From an uncultured Verrucomicrobiae bacterium (GTDB lineage Bacteria > Verrucomicrobiota > Verrucomicrobiia > Chthoniobacterales > Terrimicrobiaceae): a stretch of 64,000 nt of DNA. The DNA is taken from contig CAVPOC010000008.1 in NCBI GenBank assembly GCA_963706955.1, positions 544,001-608,000 on the forward strand, in the 5' to 3' direction. The position numbers and the translations under genes were made by a program. The notes beneath the pieces were generated by a model. That model made no database searches. It saw only the letters and a list, made by a program, of their open reading frames with translations, and was not told the DNA's origin. Positions 49,781 to 56,808 of this stretch are shown here, piece by piece (positions within the stretch are counted from its first letter, which is position 1; each line of letters begins with the position of its first letter).

Positions 49781-49862
49781 TGCCCGGAGAGGGACTCGAA
49801 CCCACAAGGATTGCTCCACCAGATCCTAAGTCTGGCGCGTCTGCCAATTCCGCCACCCGGGC
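49781..49862 (-). tRNA. tRNA-Leu(TAG)
   Basis: Cloverleaf with long variable arm, anticodon TAG. Confidence 0.96.
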
Positions 49863-49993: not shown

Positions 49994-50365
49994 CTATAAA
50001 ACGGCAGAATGCTTTAACGGGCGCTTCCTGTGGTATTTCCGACGCAGGTTGACTTCACAGATGATGAGCGGCTTTCGGTTTTTTTCGAGAATGTCCTGAA
50101 TGCCTTCTACGCAAGCCTCTACCACTTGCGACTGGCTGCGGTTCAGCTCGTCGGCCAACTCAGTCACCTTCTGCTTGCACTGCGACGTTACATTGACGAT
50201 GTGCGAACCGTTGCCTTCGTGCTCTGCAGGCGCGATAAACTCGCTGATCGCGTGACGAACGATATCCGACAGTCTCTCGCCCTTGCCGCGAGCAACCGCG
50301 ATCTCAAGCAATCGCTCGCGCTGCCCATCTTCTAGACGAACACGTAGCTGGTTGCTCTTAGGCAT
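49994..50365 (-). CDS. Putative tandem ribbon-helix-helix DNA-binding protein
   Basis: Two RHH-like patterns: LRVRL...LSDIVRHAISEFI and IVNV...RSQSQVVEACV. Confidence 0.6.
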   Translation of the reverse strand: MPKSNQLRVRLEDGQRERLLEIAVARGKGERLSDIVRHAISEFIAPAEHEGNGSHIVNVTSQCKQKVTELADELNRSQSQVVEACVEGIQDILEKNRKPLIICEVNLRRKYHRKRPLKHSAVL

Positions 50366-50422
50366 CTAAGTGTGATAAGGTAAAACTAAACAATTGCAAC
50401 ATTTTGTAAGCATCACCTCGGT

Positions 50423-51946
50423 TTAGGCAGCTGCTAAGGAAAAGCGAACCGCATGGTTGATGTCGTCGGTGAATTCAGCACTGCCCTCGTTGACATCCGG
50501 TTCGTAGAAGAGAACCGCATTCTCCGCGGTTCGTCCCTTCCCCAGGCGTAACCTTAGCGCTTTGACGTTCTTCGCCTGGGCTTGAACCGCACAGTCTCTA
50601 ATGGCCTGACCATCTGCATCGGAGATCTGAACACGAGGTAACGCAGCGGTTCCGGGGGAGATTTCGTTATCGACGAGAACCGGCACTGGCAGCGAGTCGA
50701 GAACTGCCTTCAGGTCCAAAGTACTCGGGGCGCCTTGACTTTCCTCATGCTTAGATCCGCGAGGCCCCCAGAAGACCGCGATTTTGCCATCGGCAAGCTT
50801 GGTCGCGAGGCAGGAAATCGTCGCCTGCGACTCGAAATCGATCCATGATTTCTCGACAAAGCTTCCTTTCAAAGCAAAGGCGATGACCTCCCGCGCGTAG
50901 CTATTGTGAATCGCCCTGAAATAATCTCCGTCTCGGGGTTCACTGCCTAAGAGCGCAGTCGCACCCGCTACGCTCAGAATTCGACCCTCTTGACTTATCG
51001 TGAGAATGCCGAATTTCAGCGCAGCAAAGGCTTCAAATAGATTCTTGGTTTGATGGTTTTGAGAGTCCCGTTCGAAGGCTGCCGCCACGTTTGTCGTCAG
51101 CAAATATCCGGCAACCTGGAGATCATCGAGCAGATCATCGGTGCAACGAGCGGCGTCGACTCCGAACGCCAGCCATCCGAGCAGCCGCGCCTCCTTCACC
51201 ATGGGGAGCAGCAGATTGCAATTGCGGTTGGCCAGATAGTTGAAAAGCGGAAGGGAGGCTCGATTTTCAAGTTCCTCCGTGGTGAGCGGATGGGCGCGCT
51301 TCTTGATCAAGCGGATAACCTCCTGAGAAGGTGCGCATTCTCGCCCACGAGATTTTCGCTCGGCGTAGGTTTCCGGCTCGACGTAGATGCGCCGGAAGGC
51401 ATTCTTCTCGACGTTCCGCAAAAATACTTCCACTCGGTCGGCCCGCAAGTCCCAACACAACTGCCGTGCCGCAGCGATGAGGACGGCCTGCGGCGTCTGG
51501 ACGTCGCCGGCCGCACGCGCGAGGGTGTGATCAAGAGGACTCGATATTCTGCGGGTTTGACGCCTCGGCTCGTGCCTTCGTGAAGGTGGAAAATTGTCTG
51601 TTGGGTGCGAGACGAGGTGCTGGCGGACGGCGTTGAGGACTTGATCCGGGGAGGAGGAAAGCCGGCCGGCATAACCGTTCAACTCGATCTTCGATTCTCC
51701 TAAGCCATCGACGACAAAGGTGGGAACGTCTTCGAGACGGACCTGAACTTGGTGCGCCTTCTCGAGCGTTTCATCGTCGATGACAACGCAAAGGGCTACG
51801 TCCGGCTGACGGAAGAGGGGGGCCCGCAATTCGTCGTATGAGCGAAGTTGGACCTCTGCAATTGATTCCAGGGCTTCTGCCACGTTAAGGGCGGAGCGGA
51901 GGCCATTGTGATCGTAAGCAACTATAATGGAGTGAGCGTGATTCAT
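50423..51946 (-). CDS. Hypothetical sensor-like protein (degenerate receiver-, GAF- and PAS-like segments)
   Basis: 507 aa; LLLPMVKEARLLGWLAFG is GAF-like, GILTISQEGRI..ATALLG is PAS-like; start overlaps the upstream stop. Confidence 0.55.
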   Translation of the reverse strand: MNHAHSIIVAYDHNGLRSALNVAEALESIAEVQLRSYDELRAPLFRQPDVALCVVIDDETLEKAHQVQVRLEDVPTFVVDGLGESKIELNGYAGRLSSSPDQVLNAVRQHLVSHPTDNFPPSRRHEPRRQTRRISSPLDHTLARAAGDVQTPQAVLIAAARQLCWDLRADRVEVFLRNVEKNAFRRIYVEPETYAERKSRGRECAPSQEVIRLIKKRAHPLTTEELENRASLPLFNYLANRNCNLLLPMVKEARLLGWLAFGVDAARCTDDLLDDLQVAGYLLTTNVAAAFERDSQNHQTKNLFEAFAALKFGILTISQEGRILSVAGATALLGSEPRDGDYFRAIHNSYAREVIAFALKGSFVEKSWIDFESQATISCLATKLADGKIAVFWGPRGSKHEESQGAPSTLDLKAVLDSLPVPVLVDNEISPGTAALPRVQISDADGQAIRDCAVQAQAKNVKALRLRLGKGRTAENAVLFYEPDVNEGSAEFTDDINHAVRFSLAAA

Positions 51947-53247
51947 ACTAAGACATTACTGAGGTTGGGATTGTATATCATTAACTTGAAGTTCCGGTTA
52001 TCCTTAGGGAAAGTCGCCAGCTTTGCCTGTGGCGCTCTCAAGAGCAAAGTGACATTGGCCCCCCCGATACCATGCGCATTCAGCAAAGCTGTTTCGGGAA
52101 ATGAATACCTGGCAGTTTCGCGAACGAAGTCGAGGGCTTCGGGGATGGGCACATCCAGATTAGCGGTGGGCGGCACAACTCCATCGCGAAAGGAAAAGAT
52201 CGCCGCAGCAACCTGCAATGGTCCGGCCGCAGCCAAAGGATTTCCAATGGCTCCTTTGATCGAATAAACGGGAACGTGGGCCGCCTGGCGACCGAGCGTT
52301 TCCACAAGGATTTGCGCCTCGATGCGGTCAATGACCGGATGCCCCGGACCCCACGCCGAGATCGAATCGATCGTGGCTGGGCTCCATCCAGCATTGTCTA
52401 AAGCTTTCTGGATTGAAGTGGACCATCCACTCCCGGGCACGTCCTTCTCCGTATCGAGGTGGGAACCATACCCGGCGATCTCCGCGAGAATGGAAGCCCC
52501 CCTCCTCAGGGCGGACTGCTTCTCCTCGATCAGGAAGAGACCGGCGCCTTCGGCGCATACCCCGCTGTCGGCAAAAACGTCGAATGGCCGACTGGCCTTC
52601 TCAGGGCAGGAATTCCGGATCGATGAGAATCCGCTTCTGACGAATTCGGCGAGTGGGGTCAAACCGATAGCGCAATCAGCTCCCCCGGCGATCGCCTGAT
52701 CGGTTGCACCTGTGGCGATATCGCGAGCAGCTAGCCCAATGGCTTCCAAACCGGCGGCGCAGGCCGTGGAAACGGTTAATACATCGCCCGAACTTTCCAG
52801 GTATCGCGCGATTGCCCCCGCAGCGGCATGAGGTGGACTTTGCGAAGCCGCGTACGGAGAGGCCGCCGATCCCCCTTTCTGGCTGCGTGCAATGCCTGAT
52901 TCGCTAATCATTGAGGTGCAACTCGTCGCCACCCCGAGTCTAATCGAAGGCCGCTGCCCCAACTGTTTAACCTCATCTTTGATCTGGCGCGCTGCCCACA
53001 GTAAGAGTTGTGTGTGCCGCGCGACACGCTTGGGCCTAAGTTCTGCCGGAAACAGAGAAAGGTCGAAGGGTGGCACCTCCCCCCCAAAGGAGCATCCCGA
53101 TTCCGAGGTATCCAGGCGTCTGATTTTGCCGATTACCGTCCGCCCTGTCCTAATGATCTCCCAAAACGATTCTGGCTCAAGGGCGCCTGGCGCTGCCAAT
53201 CCCATGGCGGTGATGACGGCAACACGTGGGCGAGTTATGCCATGCAT
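51943..53247 (-). CDS. Beta-ketoacyl synthase (FabF-like) with non-canonical active site
   Basis: VITAMG, STACAAG, SRPFD, EGAG, PPTAN, GIGGAN. Confidence 0.88.
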   Translation of the reverse strand: MHGITRPRVAVITAMGLAAPGALEPESFWEIIRTGRTVIGKIRRLDTSESGCSFGGEVPPFDLSLFPAELRPKRVARHTQLLLWAARQIKDEVKQLGQRPSIRLGVATSCTSMISESGIARSQKGGSAASPYAASQSPPHAAAGAIARYLESSGDVLTVSTACAAGLEAIGLAARDIATGATDQAIAGGADCAIGLTPLAEFVRSGFSSIRNSCPEKASRPFDVFADSGVCAEGAGLFLIEEKQSALRRGASILAEIAGYGSHLDTEKDVPGSGWSTSIQKALDNAGWSPATIDSISAWGPGHPVIDRIEAQILVETLGRQAAHVPVYSIKGAIGNPLAAAGPLQVAAAIFSFRDGVVPPTANLDVPIPEALDFVRETARYSFPETALLNAHGIGGANVTLLLRAPQAKLATFPKDNRNFKLMIYNPNLSNVLV

Positions 53248-54752
53248 AGTTCTGTCTCCAACAGTTTCTCCGTGCCGAGTCTCGGCTCGTTTTGCCAGAG
53301 CGGTTCATAGCGGGAAGGCGCCATGCACTCGCTCGGATCGAAGGTCCGCTGTATTCCAGAAAGAATCCGCGGCCACGGCCGCTCCATTCGCGGAATCTGA
53401 TCGCCCTGGGCCAGGCCAAGACGATACGGGATCAATCCACTCCGCAGGTAAGTCTCGAGCAAGTCGTCAGCCGCTTGCCGAGCGATCCTAGTTGCTCGGG
53501 CGCAACGACGGTCAAACCCGAGCGAGACGATGAAGGCAGCCTGGCGCGCAGTTACCGCGTTGATGGAAAGCGGAATTGTCTCATAGCCATATCGCCGGAG
53601 CGTTGTCATCGTTTGCCTTTCGATAGCGCTGACCATCTCCCCACAAAGCGGTAACATCGGCGTAACGTGGATGAGACCGGCGCCACTCGCCTCCAAAGAC
53701 ACCCCCGTCGGAGCGGCGCGTCCAAAGACACTGAAAGATACGCTCGCCAGCGTCAGATCTGAAGGGTGACCAAACACCAAATTACTTAGCTTCACCCTTT
53801 CTTGATTGCTTAGAACCTCGACCGACCCCAGCGACGCCAAAGAAGAGGTTAGGTATTCCGCCGAAGCGGCAAACACCGCTGTCGATCCACGTATCGGAAT
53901 AAGCGCCGTCCACGGCGCGGCGCTCGAGCGAAGCTCAGCTGCTTGAGTATCCGTCAGGTGCGGGCACAGCGTCGTAACAATCCGCTCTCGATTGAAAATA
54001 TGAGGCACGCCAGAACAGGCTCCCTCCGCCATCAAATCGGAAATGGTTGAAATTAGATCGGCGAGTTGATCGCCGCTGCTCAGCCGGCAGAGCACTCCTC
54101 CCATCATTGTCGGACGTCGGTGAAGCGCGATGGTCGCCGCAGTGACCACGCCGAAGTTGCTTTGACAGAAGAGCGCCGTCGGGTCCGGACCCAATCCACT
54201 AAGACCCGCTCTGGTGCGCGACAACATCCCGAATCGGGACGTGTGGGCGAGCTCGCCAGTCGGCAAGACAACCTCCAAGTCCAACAAATCAAGGTGGCGC
54301 TGGCCGGAGTAGCCAATCCCCCGCTCTAAGGCGTTACCCAGAACACTCGCCCCAAGCCCGGCCCCTGTGACATTGAAATAGTGACTGCCCCCTTCGTGCT
54401 CGAGGGCATCGTCTAGCTGGCCCTGTGTAACGCCGGGTTCAATCTCCGCACAATGCATCTTCAAATTGAAAGCCCGGATCCTTCGAAGCGCCGACAAGTT
54501 CAAAGTGTAGACATCGTCTGTCGTCGCGAGATCGGAACCGAAGCCCCAATTTCGACCGCATGAAAGTGGTTGCAATTTGACGGCGCCTCTGGCCCGTGAG
54601 GCCGCTGCGACAATACGCTGCACATCGGCCACACACTGCGGAGTCAGCACGCCGGCACTATGGCGGCGATGTCCACATAAAGACTCCGCCATCGCCCCCG
54701 GAGCTAACCAGCGACTCACTTCATCTGCAAAAACCTTCTTCGAACTACGCAT
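53235..54752 (-). CDS. FAD-binding oxidoreductase, VAO/PCMH (p-cresol methylhydroxylase flavoprotein-like)
   Basis: SCGRNWGFGS, IEPGVTQGQL, GNALERGIGY, GPDP..LFCQSNFGVVT, PYRL, FDP..MAPSRY. Confidence 0.85.
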   Translation of the reverse strand: MRSSKKVFADEVSRWLAPGAMAESLCGHRRHSAGVLTPQCVADVQRIVAAASRARGAVKLQPLSCGRNWGFGSDLATTDDVYTLNLSALRRIRAFNLKMHCAEIEPGVTQGQLDDALEHEGGSHYFNVTGAGLGASVLGNALERGIGYSGQRHLDLLDLEVVLPTGELAHTSRFGMLSRTRAGLSGLGPDPTALFCQSNFGVVTAATIALHRRPTMMGGVLCRLSSGDQLADLISTISDLMAEGACSGVPHIFNRERIVTTLCPHLTDTQAAELRSSAAPWTALIPIRGSTAVFAASAEYLTSSLASLGSVEVLSNQERVKLSNLVFGHPSDLTLASVSFSVFGRAAPTGVSLEASGAGLIHVTPMLPLCGEMVSAIERQTMTTLRRYGYETIPLSINAVTARQAAFIVSLGFDRRCARATRIARQAADDLLETYLRSGLIPYRLGLAQGDQIPRMERPWPRILSGIQRTFDPSECMAPSRYEPLWQNEPRLGTEKLLETELCMA

Positions 54753-55006
54753 ATCTCTTTAGGTAATCTCTTCACTCGTTTTCGCCCGCGTCGGGAAGGC
54801 AGCCTTCGACAGTTGCGAATCACACCGACAAGACCGTTCACCGCGGGGGGCTAAGACGAGTCAATCTGATTAGAATTTCGCCCTTCTAAGGCTCAGTTTG
54901 CAGGTGCGTCACCGCTAATTTTCTGTAGCGTGCCTTGTCGTTTTGTTTCCTTTGATGCACAAATAGGGCACATTTGTATCACAAACATGTTATCTGCAAT
55001 ACACCT

Positions 55007-55627
55007 ATGACAAGTGAGTTACACGGAGAGAGTCTCGGACGCTGGGCTCGGCGTTGTGGAATTACATATCGGACCGCGTGGCGTTGGTTTCGCGACGACA
55101 AATTGCCGGAAGACGTGATTGCCGAGCGGATGCCCACCGGAACGATCCTGATCCGTGACGGCCGAACTCTAAGGAGTGTGGAGCAAGATAAGACCGCGGT
55201 AATTTATGCACGGATTAATGCTCGCCAGGAACCCTCGGTGTTGGCGGAGCAGATCGCTATGTGTCAGGACTTCTGTGTGGCGCGAGGATGGACGATCACC
55301 CGGGTGATTCGGGAGATTGCCCCCGGAGTTGGACTTCAACGAACAAAGTTGACGCGGCTCATTGAGCAGCGGGCGCCAAGAGTCGTCGTGGCGAAACCAA
55401 GTGTCTTGAGCCGCTTTGACTATCGGCTCTGTGAGGCTCTCTGGCAGAACCTTGCCTCAGAGCTTGTGATTGTGAACCAAGCCGAGGAGATCGGTGGGGA
55501 GGGTGGCGCGCTCGAAGATTTGACCGACGCAATAAACATTATTTGTCATCGTCACTATGGACCGAAACGCGGCGGCGCGCTGGTCGAGCTGCTCAGCCGA
55601 GTCATTCACGGAACGCTCTCTGTTTAA
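55007..55627 (+). CDS. IS607-family TnpA-like protein (wHTH plus serine-recombinase domain), catalytic Ser absent
   Basis: WARRCGITYRTAWRWF...PTGTILI, YARIN, EIAPG, LSRF, HYG. Confidence 0.85.
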   Translation: MTSELHGESLGRWARRCGITYRTAWRWFRDDKLPEDVIAERMPTGTILIRDGRTLRSVEQDKTAVIYARINARQEPSVLAEQIAMCQDFCVARGWTITRVIREIAPGVGLQRTKLTRLIEQRAPRVVVAKPSVLSRFDYRLCEALWQNLASELVIVNQAEEIGGEGGALEDLTDAINIICHRHYGPKRGGALVELLSRVIHGTLSV

Positions 55628-55644
55628 TTCTTGCGTCGGCGGTC

Positions 55645-56808
55645 TCAAACAAGCCGCGCAAAAGCAGCAATCAACTCGTGGCGGGTCTTAAATCCCAACT
55701 TCTTATAAATGGAACTCAATTGGTTCCGCACGGTGATTTCGCTTTTCCCCAGTCTCTGGGCAATATCCCGATTGTGCAGACCTTGGGCGGCAAGCAGCGC
55801 GCAATCCCGTTCGCGTCGGGTCAACTGATTGAGCTTATCGGCAAGATTTGTCTCTTTCTTGGAAAGACGTTCTTCGTTGAGCGTCAGCAAAAAAGTTCCC
55901 TTCGATAACGATAGCGATCGTGAGGGCAAGAACTCGATGGAAGCGCTCAAGGCGGCATTCGTAGGATGTCGATAGCGAAACTGTATAGATCTGCGGCCGC
56001 CGGGAGTATGGCTCCATTTTTGCCGCATGATGTTCGGGCGCATTCGTTCGAGTTCGGCTAAGATGTCGCCGGGGACTTGAAGTCTTCGAGGAGCTTTGAA
56101 GATCGACGGGCTGCTCCCGTTCTTCCATTGAAAGCAAAGTTGGCTGGCAATGGCGTTGTTGTGCAAGACCTTTAGATTCCAATCGAGGATGATTGTCGCG
56201 GAAGGAAGCGAAGAGACAAAGTAGCGCAGAGACGATTGAAAGAGGCGGCTCTCTTGATGCCCGGCCATTCTGCGAATCACGCAAGCAAAGTGAGGCTGGA
56301 GGGCCTGCAGTTCCTGCATTTGCTCGTCCGTAAAGTTTCCCTGTTCTTTACTGCGCATCACTGTAAGTGTCGCCAGCCAAGTGGTGTCGCGCCAGGCGAC
56401 CACCGAAGCGCCAAACTCGCATTCACTCGGCAGGAGGAGCTTCTTATAGAAGATCGACCGGTGGAGCATGTTTTGCGGCGTGAAATCGGAGTGTCGCACC
56501 ACGGTGACTTGGGGGTTTACTGGACTTCGCCGCAACCAAATATCGTGCTTGTGGGTTTCGGCCATGTACTCGTCCACGAGCGGCTTCCACTTCAAAGGAA
56601 AAAAACGACACGGGAGTTCAAACTCCAACGGACGAAACAGCAAGATCAAAAAACGGTTAGGAATGCAGACGTCGACAAGCTCGAACGTTGCTTTGGCAAG
56701 CTTCGCACCATCATCGACTTCGTGGAGTCGAACTAAAAGCTCCTCCGCCGCACGATTGGTATGAAACGGAAGAAACGACACCTTTTGGTTCGTTTGCACC
56801 ATAGCCAT
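55645..56808 (-). CDS. LuxR-family HTH regulator with large N-terminal sensor region
   Basis: LTRRERDCALLAAQGLHNRDIAQRLGKSEITVRNQLSSIYKKLG; start uncertain. Confidence 0.9.
   Translation of the reverse strand: MAMVQTNQKVSFLPFHTNRAAEELLVRLHEVDDGAKLAKATFELVDVCIPNRFLILLFRPLEFELPCRFFPLKWKPLVDEYMAETHKHDIWLRRSPVNPQVTVVRHSDFTPQNMLHRSIFYKKLLLPSECEFGASVVAWRDTTWLATLTVMRSKEQGNFTDEQMQELQALQPHFACVIRRMAGHQESRLFQSSLRYFVSSLPSATIILDWNLKVLHNNAIASQLCFQWKNGSSPSIFKAPRRLQVPGDILAELERMRPNIMRQKWSHTPGGRRSIQFRYRHPTNAALSASIEFLPSRSLSLSKGTFLLTLNEERLSKKETNLADKLNQLTRRERDCALLAAQGLHNRDIAQRLGKSEITVRNQLSSIYKKLGFKTRHELIAAFARLV

Follow-up and report, generated by a model that had tools for sequence, protein, structure and literature searches.

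The transposases (TnpAs) of IS607, IS1535 and ISC1926 are composed of a winged helix, a serine-recombinase core and a folded-back helix E (6DGB, 6DGC, 3LHK; PMC6188088, PMC4058570). TnpA is reported to bind helically phased direct repeats cooperatively, as dimers with occluded active sites, and its serine is described as required for transposition, serine mutants of IS607 being dead (PMC6188088). Likewise, a serine mutant serves as the inactive control in a study of IStrons (10.1101/2023.11.20.567912). In the closed, inactive dimer, an acidic pair is described as locking the active-site arginines (PMC4058570). Winged helices of BldC, RdfS and Xis are reported to form cooperative head-to-tail arrays on direct repeats and to regulate transcription or recombination (PMC11963761; 6AMK, 8DGL, 4J2N).

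Reuse of proteins from such elements by the host is established for TnpB. TldRs and other exapted nuclease-dead TnpBs are dead proteins of IS200/605/607 type immobilised beside host genes (10.1101/2023.11.30.569447; PMC10691335), and the reuse of TldR as a transcription repressor is reported as demonstrated (10.1101/2023.11.30.569447). For IS607-derived genes of eukaryotes, strong purifying selection is reported and domestication has been proposed; these genes are mostly species-specific, and active-site loss, a conserved operon and a cis-site are absent from the accessible part of that account (PMC3673617). We found no account of a TnpA serine transposase fixed as a dead, chromosomal, operon-linked bacterial gene. 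Specifically, the literature searched contains no description of the clade reported below or of a dead bacterial TnpA regulator, while census tables of TnpB and IS607 could list such proteins; in a review of prokaryotic exaptation, IS607 and TnpA do not occur (PMC8987985).

Here we describe a candidate for such a gene. The window, the whole stretch of 64,000 nucleotides that was analysed, comes from an uncultured Verrucomicrobiae bacterium (GCA_963706955.1, contig CAVPOC010000008.1, positions 544,001-608,000, forward strand). An intact open reading frame at 55007..55627 (+) encodes a 206-residue protein that domain searches, alignments and fold matches assign to the IS607-type TnpAs. The protein contains a MerR/BldC-like winged helix (wHTH; residues ~8-52), a serine-recombinase core with Ser71 replaced by Asn (residues 63-160) and helix E (residues 161-200), which is the domain order of the IS607 TnpA family. 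It matches Pfam Resolvase (E=3.9e-7, above the cut-off) and NCBIfam transpos_IS607 (E=1.7e-26; 92.9 bits, under the cut-off of 110 for that model), and its sequence and fold both resemble the catalytic domains of IS607 TnpAs with known structures (6DGC, 6DGB and 3LHK). The predicted structure (mean pLDDT 84.4) retains an intact fold, with a best match to 6dgb at VIA Z 15.6 and rmsd 2.2 over 131 residues. A search of the ESM Atlas returned only ordinary IS607/resolvase clusters. Judged from its sequence, the gene at 55007-55627 is a descendant of IS607 tnpA. An initial annotation of the same DNA had recognised an IS607 transposase with a preserved wHTH and a dead active site, and the motifs it named (GITYRTAWRWF, PTGTILI, YARINA, EIAPG and SVLSRF) are all present.

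The loss of the catalytic residues is a property of a whole clade. A protein search gave 131 relatives, and the residue counts below refer to the query and the best 120 of the 131, where the column was covered; 102 outgroup TnpAs were used for comparison. In an alignment to ISC1926 TnpA (6dgc), the first Ser of YARVSS, which is the position of the nucleophile, corresponds to Asn71. Among the query and the best 120 relatives, this position is Asn in 115/116, Pro in 1/116 and Ser in none of 116, whereas in the outgroup it is Ser in 94/102 and Asn in 2/102. Consistent with this, none of the closest homologues among the matches listed (43-95% identity) has Ser at the nucleophile position. In a FastTree phylogeny of 136 sequences rooted at the midpoint, the Asn proteins form one clade (support 0.954) that is nested within ordinary IS607 TnpAs; its sister consists of two more Asn proteins, P0129 and P0136 (support 0.985). 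All Ser codons of the control loci are TCN (56/56), and the clade uses both AAT and AAC for Asn, so the change from Ser to Asn took at least two base changes. The initial annotation had proposed two ways in which domestication would fail, namely closest homologues with Ser in multi-copy elements, or a change confined to this assembly without selection. What was found favours domestication on both counts, with no Ser among 116 listed proteins, a single copy in each genome counted, and an Asn that is clade-wide, monophyletic and under purifying selection.

The Asp-Arg pair of the DRLxR motif is also substituted, in 121/121 proteins among the matches listed (D132 to S/T/N/A; R133 to V/I), and the residues of the outgroup consensus replaced in the clade are S71, N109, D132 and R133. 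The description of the active site as dead thus holds for the serine, D132, R133 and N109, but the site is not wholly eroded, because R69, Q82, E103, R112, R136 and D171 are invariant and E170 is near-invariant (118/121) among the matches listed. By position, E170 and D171 would be the acidic pair of the closed dimer. One supposed defect did not survive comparison: EIAPG had been listed as a degraded EIGSG, but Ala occupies that position in 32/102 outgroup TnpAs. Some residues are new to the clade. Among the matches listed, N71 (115/116), R73 (114/117) and C86 (120/120) are near-invariant, and G109, D138, H183 and K187 are invariant (121/121 each). We dropped the idea of a novel Cys/His metal site, since C90 (49/102) and C180 (64/95) are common in active TnpAs. 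Database labels such as 'putative resolvase' and 'recombinase' are wrong for more than 100 protein clusters.

In contrast to the catalytic residues, the part that would contact DNA is kept. The recognition helix T23-A24-W25-R26 is invariant in 107/107 proteins among the matches listed, and the nearest active IS607 elements have the same recognition helix, although the control set of active elements was fetched with this helix as the pattern and is therefore selected for it. The active subfamily with this one common helix (L052-L115) is widespread, occurring in cyanobacteria, Chloroflexota, Chlamydiota and Bacillota. The wHTH has middling structural matches to BldC (Z 6.0, rmsd 2.4, 51 residues), RdfS (Z 5.8) and Xis (Z 5.7), with Cox within 5.7-5.8. 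Those proteins are small stand-alone domains as reported, whereas here the wHTH is fused to a dead recombinase core, a would-be dimerisation module. A homodimer model of the protein scored 0.65, compared with 0.00 for the best control; its runs share at least 87% of their contacts, with pLDDT of at least 77. The mark for dimers was reached by 20/30 solved pairs and 1/23 single chains. Because like dimers have already been solved, the model is taken as a likeness only.

The gene is immobile. It is present as a single copy in its own genome, in each of 13 genomes of the genus with an intact match and in two distant metagenome-assembled genomes (MAGs). As the initial annotation had stated, there is no tnpB. 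Specifically, neither PF07282 nor a TnpB HMM built from the control loci finds a TnpB in the genome (92.5% complete), and the HMM matches 0/46 clade loci as compared with 52/63 control loci (28/39 among non-seed controls); a regex test for TnpB had proved insensitive, and the HMM was used instead. The short distance to the convergent LuxR gene was likewise borne out: only 17 bp separate the stop codons in the window, and in some loci the two genes overlap, so there is no room for an IS607 right end. Inspection of the upstream alignments by eye gave no conserved GG termini. The variable insertion sites and multiple copies of active IS607 were not found; instead, the same neighbours flank the gene in 15/15 genome regions.

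The relatives are soil Verrucomicrobiota labelled Terrimicrobiaceae, and the group comprises bacteria from soil and peat. Among 18 other genomes of the genus, 16 have a match, comprising 13 intact genes, two with broken frames (G010 and G012) and one at a contig edge. In G010 and G012 the neighbouring genes are broken as well, which suggests assembly errors. The gene is found in 0/22 genomes beyond the genus. In an order-wide sample, it is present in 11/12 genomes of the same genus and in 0/59 other genomes of the family, and the adjacent FAD gene has a parallel pattern (12/12 in the genus, 0/59 in the rest of the family and 0/388 others). A further match at order level (G587) was rejected, as it has Ser and a long downstream ORF, and 2/400 genomes in a phylum sample have weak matches (25-35% identity) that lie outside the clade by context. 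We also considered and rejected viral origin or spread: of 11 viral loci, the 8 that are full-length have Ser and 7/8 have a TnpB match, and searches with P0129 and P0136 gave no viral locus.

The gene is under purifying selection. Using the 36 unsaturated of 91 pairs, with dS near-saturated across all domains, the median dN/dS is 0.097 (maximum 0.144), which is at the level of LuxR (0.102) and KAS (0.076) and lower than that of rdgB (0.158), and the gene stays intact down to 43% identity. By domain, dN is lowest in the wHTH (0.093), intermediate in the core (0.16) and highest in the linker (0.614). Pairwise distances of the dead TnpA track those of LuxR, FAD and KAS with Spearman coefficients of 0.83-0.86 over 210 non-independent pairs from 21 loci, and within the genus they track rdgB with a coefficient of 0.59. 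An immobile gene that is orthologous between species and under purifying selection despite catalytic loss is, with near certainty, a domesticated transposon gene.

The dead TnpA is part of a cassette with the order RHH-GAF-KAS-FAD oxidoreductase-(desaturase), divergent from tnpA, followed by LuxR, convergent with it. In agreement with the initial annotation, the operon divergent from tnpA begins with a flavoprotein gene followed by a KAS gene. Specifically, the first gene (53235..54752, -) encodes a VAO/p-cresol-methylhydroxylase-like (PCMH) FAD oxidoreductase with a FAD_binding_4 domain, and it is followed by genes for a FabF-like ketosynthase (KAS; 51943..53247, -), a GAF/PAS-like sensory protein of 507 aa without a named family (50423..51946, -) and a small ribbon-helix-helix-like (RHH) regulator that has weak matches only (49994..50365, -). 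The gene on the other side (55645..56808, -) encodes a LuxR-family regulator with a C-terminal GerE HTH. The FAD gene is divergent and the LuxR gene convergent in 15/15 genome regions, and 28/29 metagenome loci have at least one cassette neighbour, although several of these loci are duplicates and three have gene fragments only. The cassette ranges from the Terrimicrobiaceae genus out to a Methylacidiphilales MAG; it occurs in a MAG with a 57%-identical TnpA and in the Methylacidiphilales MAG (50% identical), the latter adding a fatty-acid desaturase. The whole cassette spans 49994-56808 in the window and is also seen in L048, L050 and L124-L144, with lineage-specific flanks.

The KAS keeps Cys163, and both catalytic His residues are replaced (Trp299 and Asn336) in 12/12 aligned proteins (window and 11 orthologues). 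In FabF chemistry, loss of both His residues points to acyl transfer without decarboxylation, and KAS is thus probably a non-decarboxylating acyltransferase or a pseudo-enzyme. No ACP gene was seen in the cassette, which possibly makes and senses a lipid signal. A putative lipid-modifying cassette with a His-less ketosynthase, hitherto undescribed, occurs in common uncultured soil Verrucomicrobiota. In one genome (G006, L032:3873-6689), the FAD oxidoreductase and KAS are read as one 938-aa ORF, either a fusion or an assembly error. In desaturase-type cassettes, LuxR is followed by a 330-360 aa protein (L050:8126-9211, L124:9105-10103, L126:9739-10752, L131:9089-10126 and L134:9085-10086) that has no Pfam match in the four scanned. 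RNA contigs from 4 of 16 runs, each examined in a small share, are short and of low depth, with level and strand unreadable: X5 covers 55071-55244, X7 has pieces within 55196-55621, and X1 and X2 have none. They are not counted as support for transcription.

The DNA between the divergent genes retains features of an IS607 left end. In active elements, the 65 bp upstream of tnpA contain direct repeats at a 10-bp lag (z=9.2, 31 non-redundant ends), for which dyad EM gives the consensus TATRGWCAAA. Unseeded EM on the same 31 left ends had returned an AT-dinucleotide pattern, with which 1/18 clade regions reached p<0.05, and was replaced by the lag test and dyad EM. In the active subfamily, the 10-bp repeat overlaps the -35 region of tnpA, which suggests autorepression, and in L058 the last unit gives, by eye, a TTGACA-17-TATAAT promoter, which suggests that TnpA already occupies its own promoter. 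A matrix made from active relatives only was then applied to 14 divergent clade representatives out of 41 upstream regions. On the + strand, 6/14 regions reached p<0.05 (Fisher 6.6e-7, a value inflated by common ancestry), compared with 2/14 on the - strand (Fisher 0.34). The observed motif sum was reached by 6/2000 column-permuted matrices and 0/1000 random-window sets. The next-best positions in the 14 lineages lie at offsets -10 and -20 relative to the main unit, a phase score that was matched by 0/300 shuffles. In a mostly same-genus set, 2/18 regions reached p<0.05, and other rotations of the matrix gave 2, 4 and 10 of 18. Retention of a left-end-like motif across proteins of ~45-60% identity is itself evidence, on sequence grounds, despite the inflated p value.

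In the window, the conserved cis-region (54908..55002, +) comprises a vestigial IS607 left end and a probable divergent promoter region. Its main left-end-like unit, a candidate binding site at 54954..54963 (+), is degenerate (score 4.4, p=0.37), whereas short left-end direct repeats as in active IS607 are found clade-wide and those of distant lineages are near-perfect to the active-element motif. A weak unit (score 1.1) lies ~20 bp upstream of the main unit at 54933..54942 (+), and in 16/17 loci inspected a conserved GTCA, at 54908..54911 (+) in the window, precedes the main unit by 45-46 bp. The repeats that the initial annotation had seen in the intergenic DNA are real, and include a 13-nt direct repeat at 54951 and 54973 (22-bp spacing), a 6-bp inverted repeat at 54959-54977 and a genus-conserved palindrome with 5-bp arms and a 3-bp centre at 54973..54985. 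Their reading as TTG-led 8-9-mers was not upheld, because the unit conserved among relatives is ATGGnCAAA-like with a period of 10 bp. The palindrome could be bound by a second regulator or could be a promoter element. A scan of 54700-55100 for sigma-70 consensus promoters gave none, and -35/-10 assignments made by eye were dropped as inconsistent among lineages. In L053, an 11-bp insertion duplicates one unit with helical phase kept; the cis-region is otherwise nearly indel-free. Six loci (L048, L050, L124, L129, L131 and L134) have, by eye, AATAC twice at ~11-bp spacing just upstream of the start; this repeat, near the likely transcription start, is a possible site for RHH or LuxR.

A core element of 33 nt in this region occurs once in the genome (45.8 bits, as compared with 10.7 for the runner-up), so any control would be local and may be confined to the tnpA gene itself. 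A search for a wider regulon with four matrices over the genome gave no clear second site. With a clade-wide matrix, two 20-nt matches in G000 (contig C3, - strand, near 222514 and 206016) outscore the site in the window.

Taken with the conserved recognition helix, the retained upstream motif points indirectly to a regulatory role. We propose that, on one occasion, in an ancestor shared by several Verrucomicrobiota lineages, an IS607 element lost tnpB, the right end and the catalytic Ser, while tnpA and the left-end repeats stayed behind as a fixed component of a cassette for regulation and lipid modification. The dead TnpA would form the closed TnpA dimer, shut by the kept contacts between the arginines and E170/D171. 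Its winged helices would bind phased direct repeats cooperatively, in the way that TnpA binds transposon ends and BldC binds promoters, and the resulting nucleoprotein patch would control the divergent promoters. In desaturase-type loci the two divergent starts are only ~140 bp apart, so that a bound array would affect both. In the simplest form, the protein would repress its own gene and determine how strongly the FAD oxidoreductase-KAS-GAF-RHH operon is expressed, probably together with LuxR; LuxR or RHH could account for part of the conserved cis-sequence. We assign a probability of roughly 0.68 to the reading that a domesticated, dead transposase binds what remains of its left end and controls the two divergent promoters locally.

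Compared with the active IS607 subfamily, the locus shares the recognition helix, the left-end-like 10-bp repeat upstream, the E-D pair and most arginines, and differs in having Asn for Ser, in the loss of the DR of DRLxR, of tnpB and apparently of the right end, and in its single copy, fixed synteny, housekeeping-level dN/dS and new invariant residues. Compared with TldR, which is TnpB-derived and RNA-guided as described, the protein is TnpA-derived and would read DNA repeats by a protein helix. The protein and the sites that it would have bound, the two sides of this transition, are apparently both preserved, and active relatives with the same helix serve as controls, which makes the conversion of a transposase and its end sequences into a regulator-operator pair a directly testable question.

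A more specific reading, compatible with the local regulator proposed above, is that the dead core now binds a ligand or a partner, which might be a lipid made by the operon, LuxR, the GAF protein or RHH. The protein would in that case regulate in response to a signal, and would not bind DNA constitutively. The near-invariant residues specific to the clade lie together around the former active site and the dimer interface of the model, and the core is itself under purifying selection. A serine transposase and its end sites would then have been turned into a signal-responsive transcription factor, with the dead pocket or dimer interface (N71, R73, D138 and H183) sensing a lipid product or a partner of the cassette with LuxR and the non-decarboxylating ketosynthase. 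We consider this tentative and rather unlikely, because the kept arginines are explained by the autoinhibitory contacts described for TnpA (PMC4058570) and the core has gained no Cys-based metal site.

The protein might instead be an architectural or mobility helper that links DNA segments or bends them, as is seen for TnpA in paired-end complexes and for the directionality factors RdfS and Xis, and that helps an integrase to move the cassette, with little effect on transcription. Such a role would fit the patchy distribution of the cassette (one genus of the family and distant MAGs), its lineage-dependent flanks, the tyrosine integrase genes near the cassette in L048 and L131, and the likeness of the wHTH to RdfS, Xis and Cox. 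It would also fit the tRNA-Leu(TAG) gene (window 49781-49862, -) that lies directly downstream of the RHH gene in 12/15 same-genus regions scanned. Beyond the 3' end of this tRNA gene, the genes differ between genomes, as at an integration hotspot. However, the cassette is on the 5' side of the tRNA, and in the genus it is fixed by lytTR-rdgB-leuS, with no integrase in the regions read. In addition, only one motif array was found per genome, and the dead TnpA has diverged in step with the cassette, as it has with rdgB inside the genus. We regard a helper role as improbable.

It is very improbable that the gene is a selfish or inert leftover that represses only its own promoter, or does nothing, and persists by linkage. 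The conserved sites do adjoin its own start, as in active elements. Decayed copies also exist: a C-terminal piece lies beside LuxR at L149:2221-2325 and L150:7001-7105, and L147:7001-7099 is an isolated gene fragment near mobile-element genes. But the remnants sit where the operon is missing, with a two-component cluster replacing it in L149 and L150, and the frame breaks in G010 and G012 extend to neighbouring genes. Moreover, a dN/dS of ~0.1 in a gene with near-saturated dS in all domains does not fit an inert leftover.

That the protein remains catalytically active as a recombinase, through a different nucleophile or some unusual chemistry, is scarcely credible. The fold and R69, Q82, E103, R112 and R136 are kept, but Ser, the DRLxR Asp-Arg and N109 are all replaced, and positions 72 (P/S/A) and 132 (S/T/N/A) vary too much for either to be a fixed replacement. 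The gene also occurs as one copy, the space beside it is too short for a right end, and serine mutants are reported as dead in IS607 and used as the inactive control for IStrons (PMC6188088; 10.1101/2023.11.20.567912).

In further IS607 TnpAs (P0129, P0136, P0137, P0188, P0123 and P0124), Asn or His likewise takes the place of the nucleophile. P0137 and P0188 fall outside the Asn clade, which suggests that the nucleophile has been lost repeatedly and independently.
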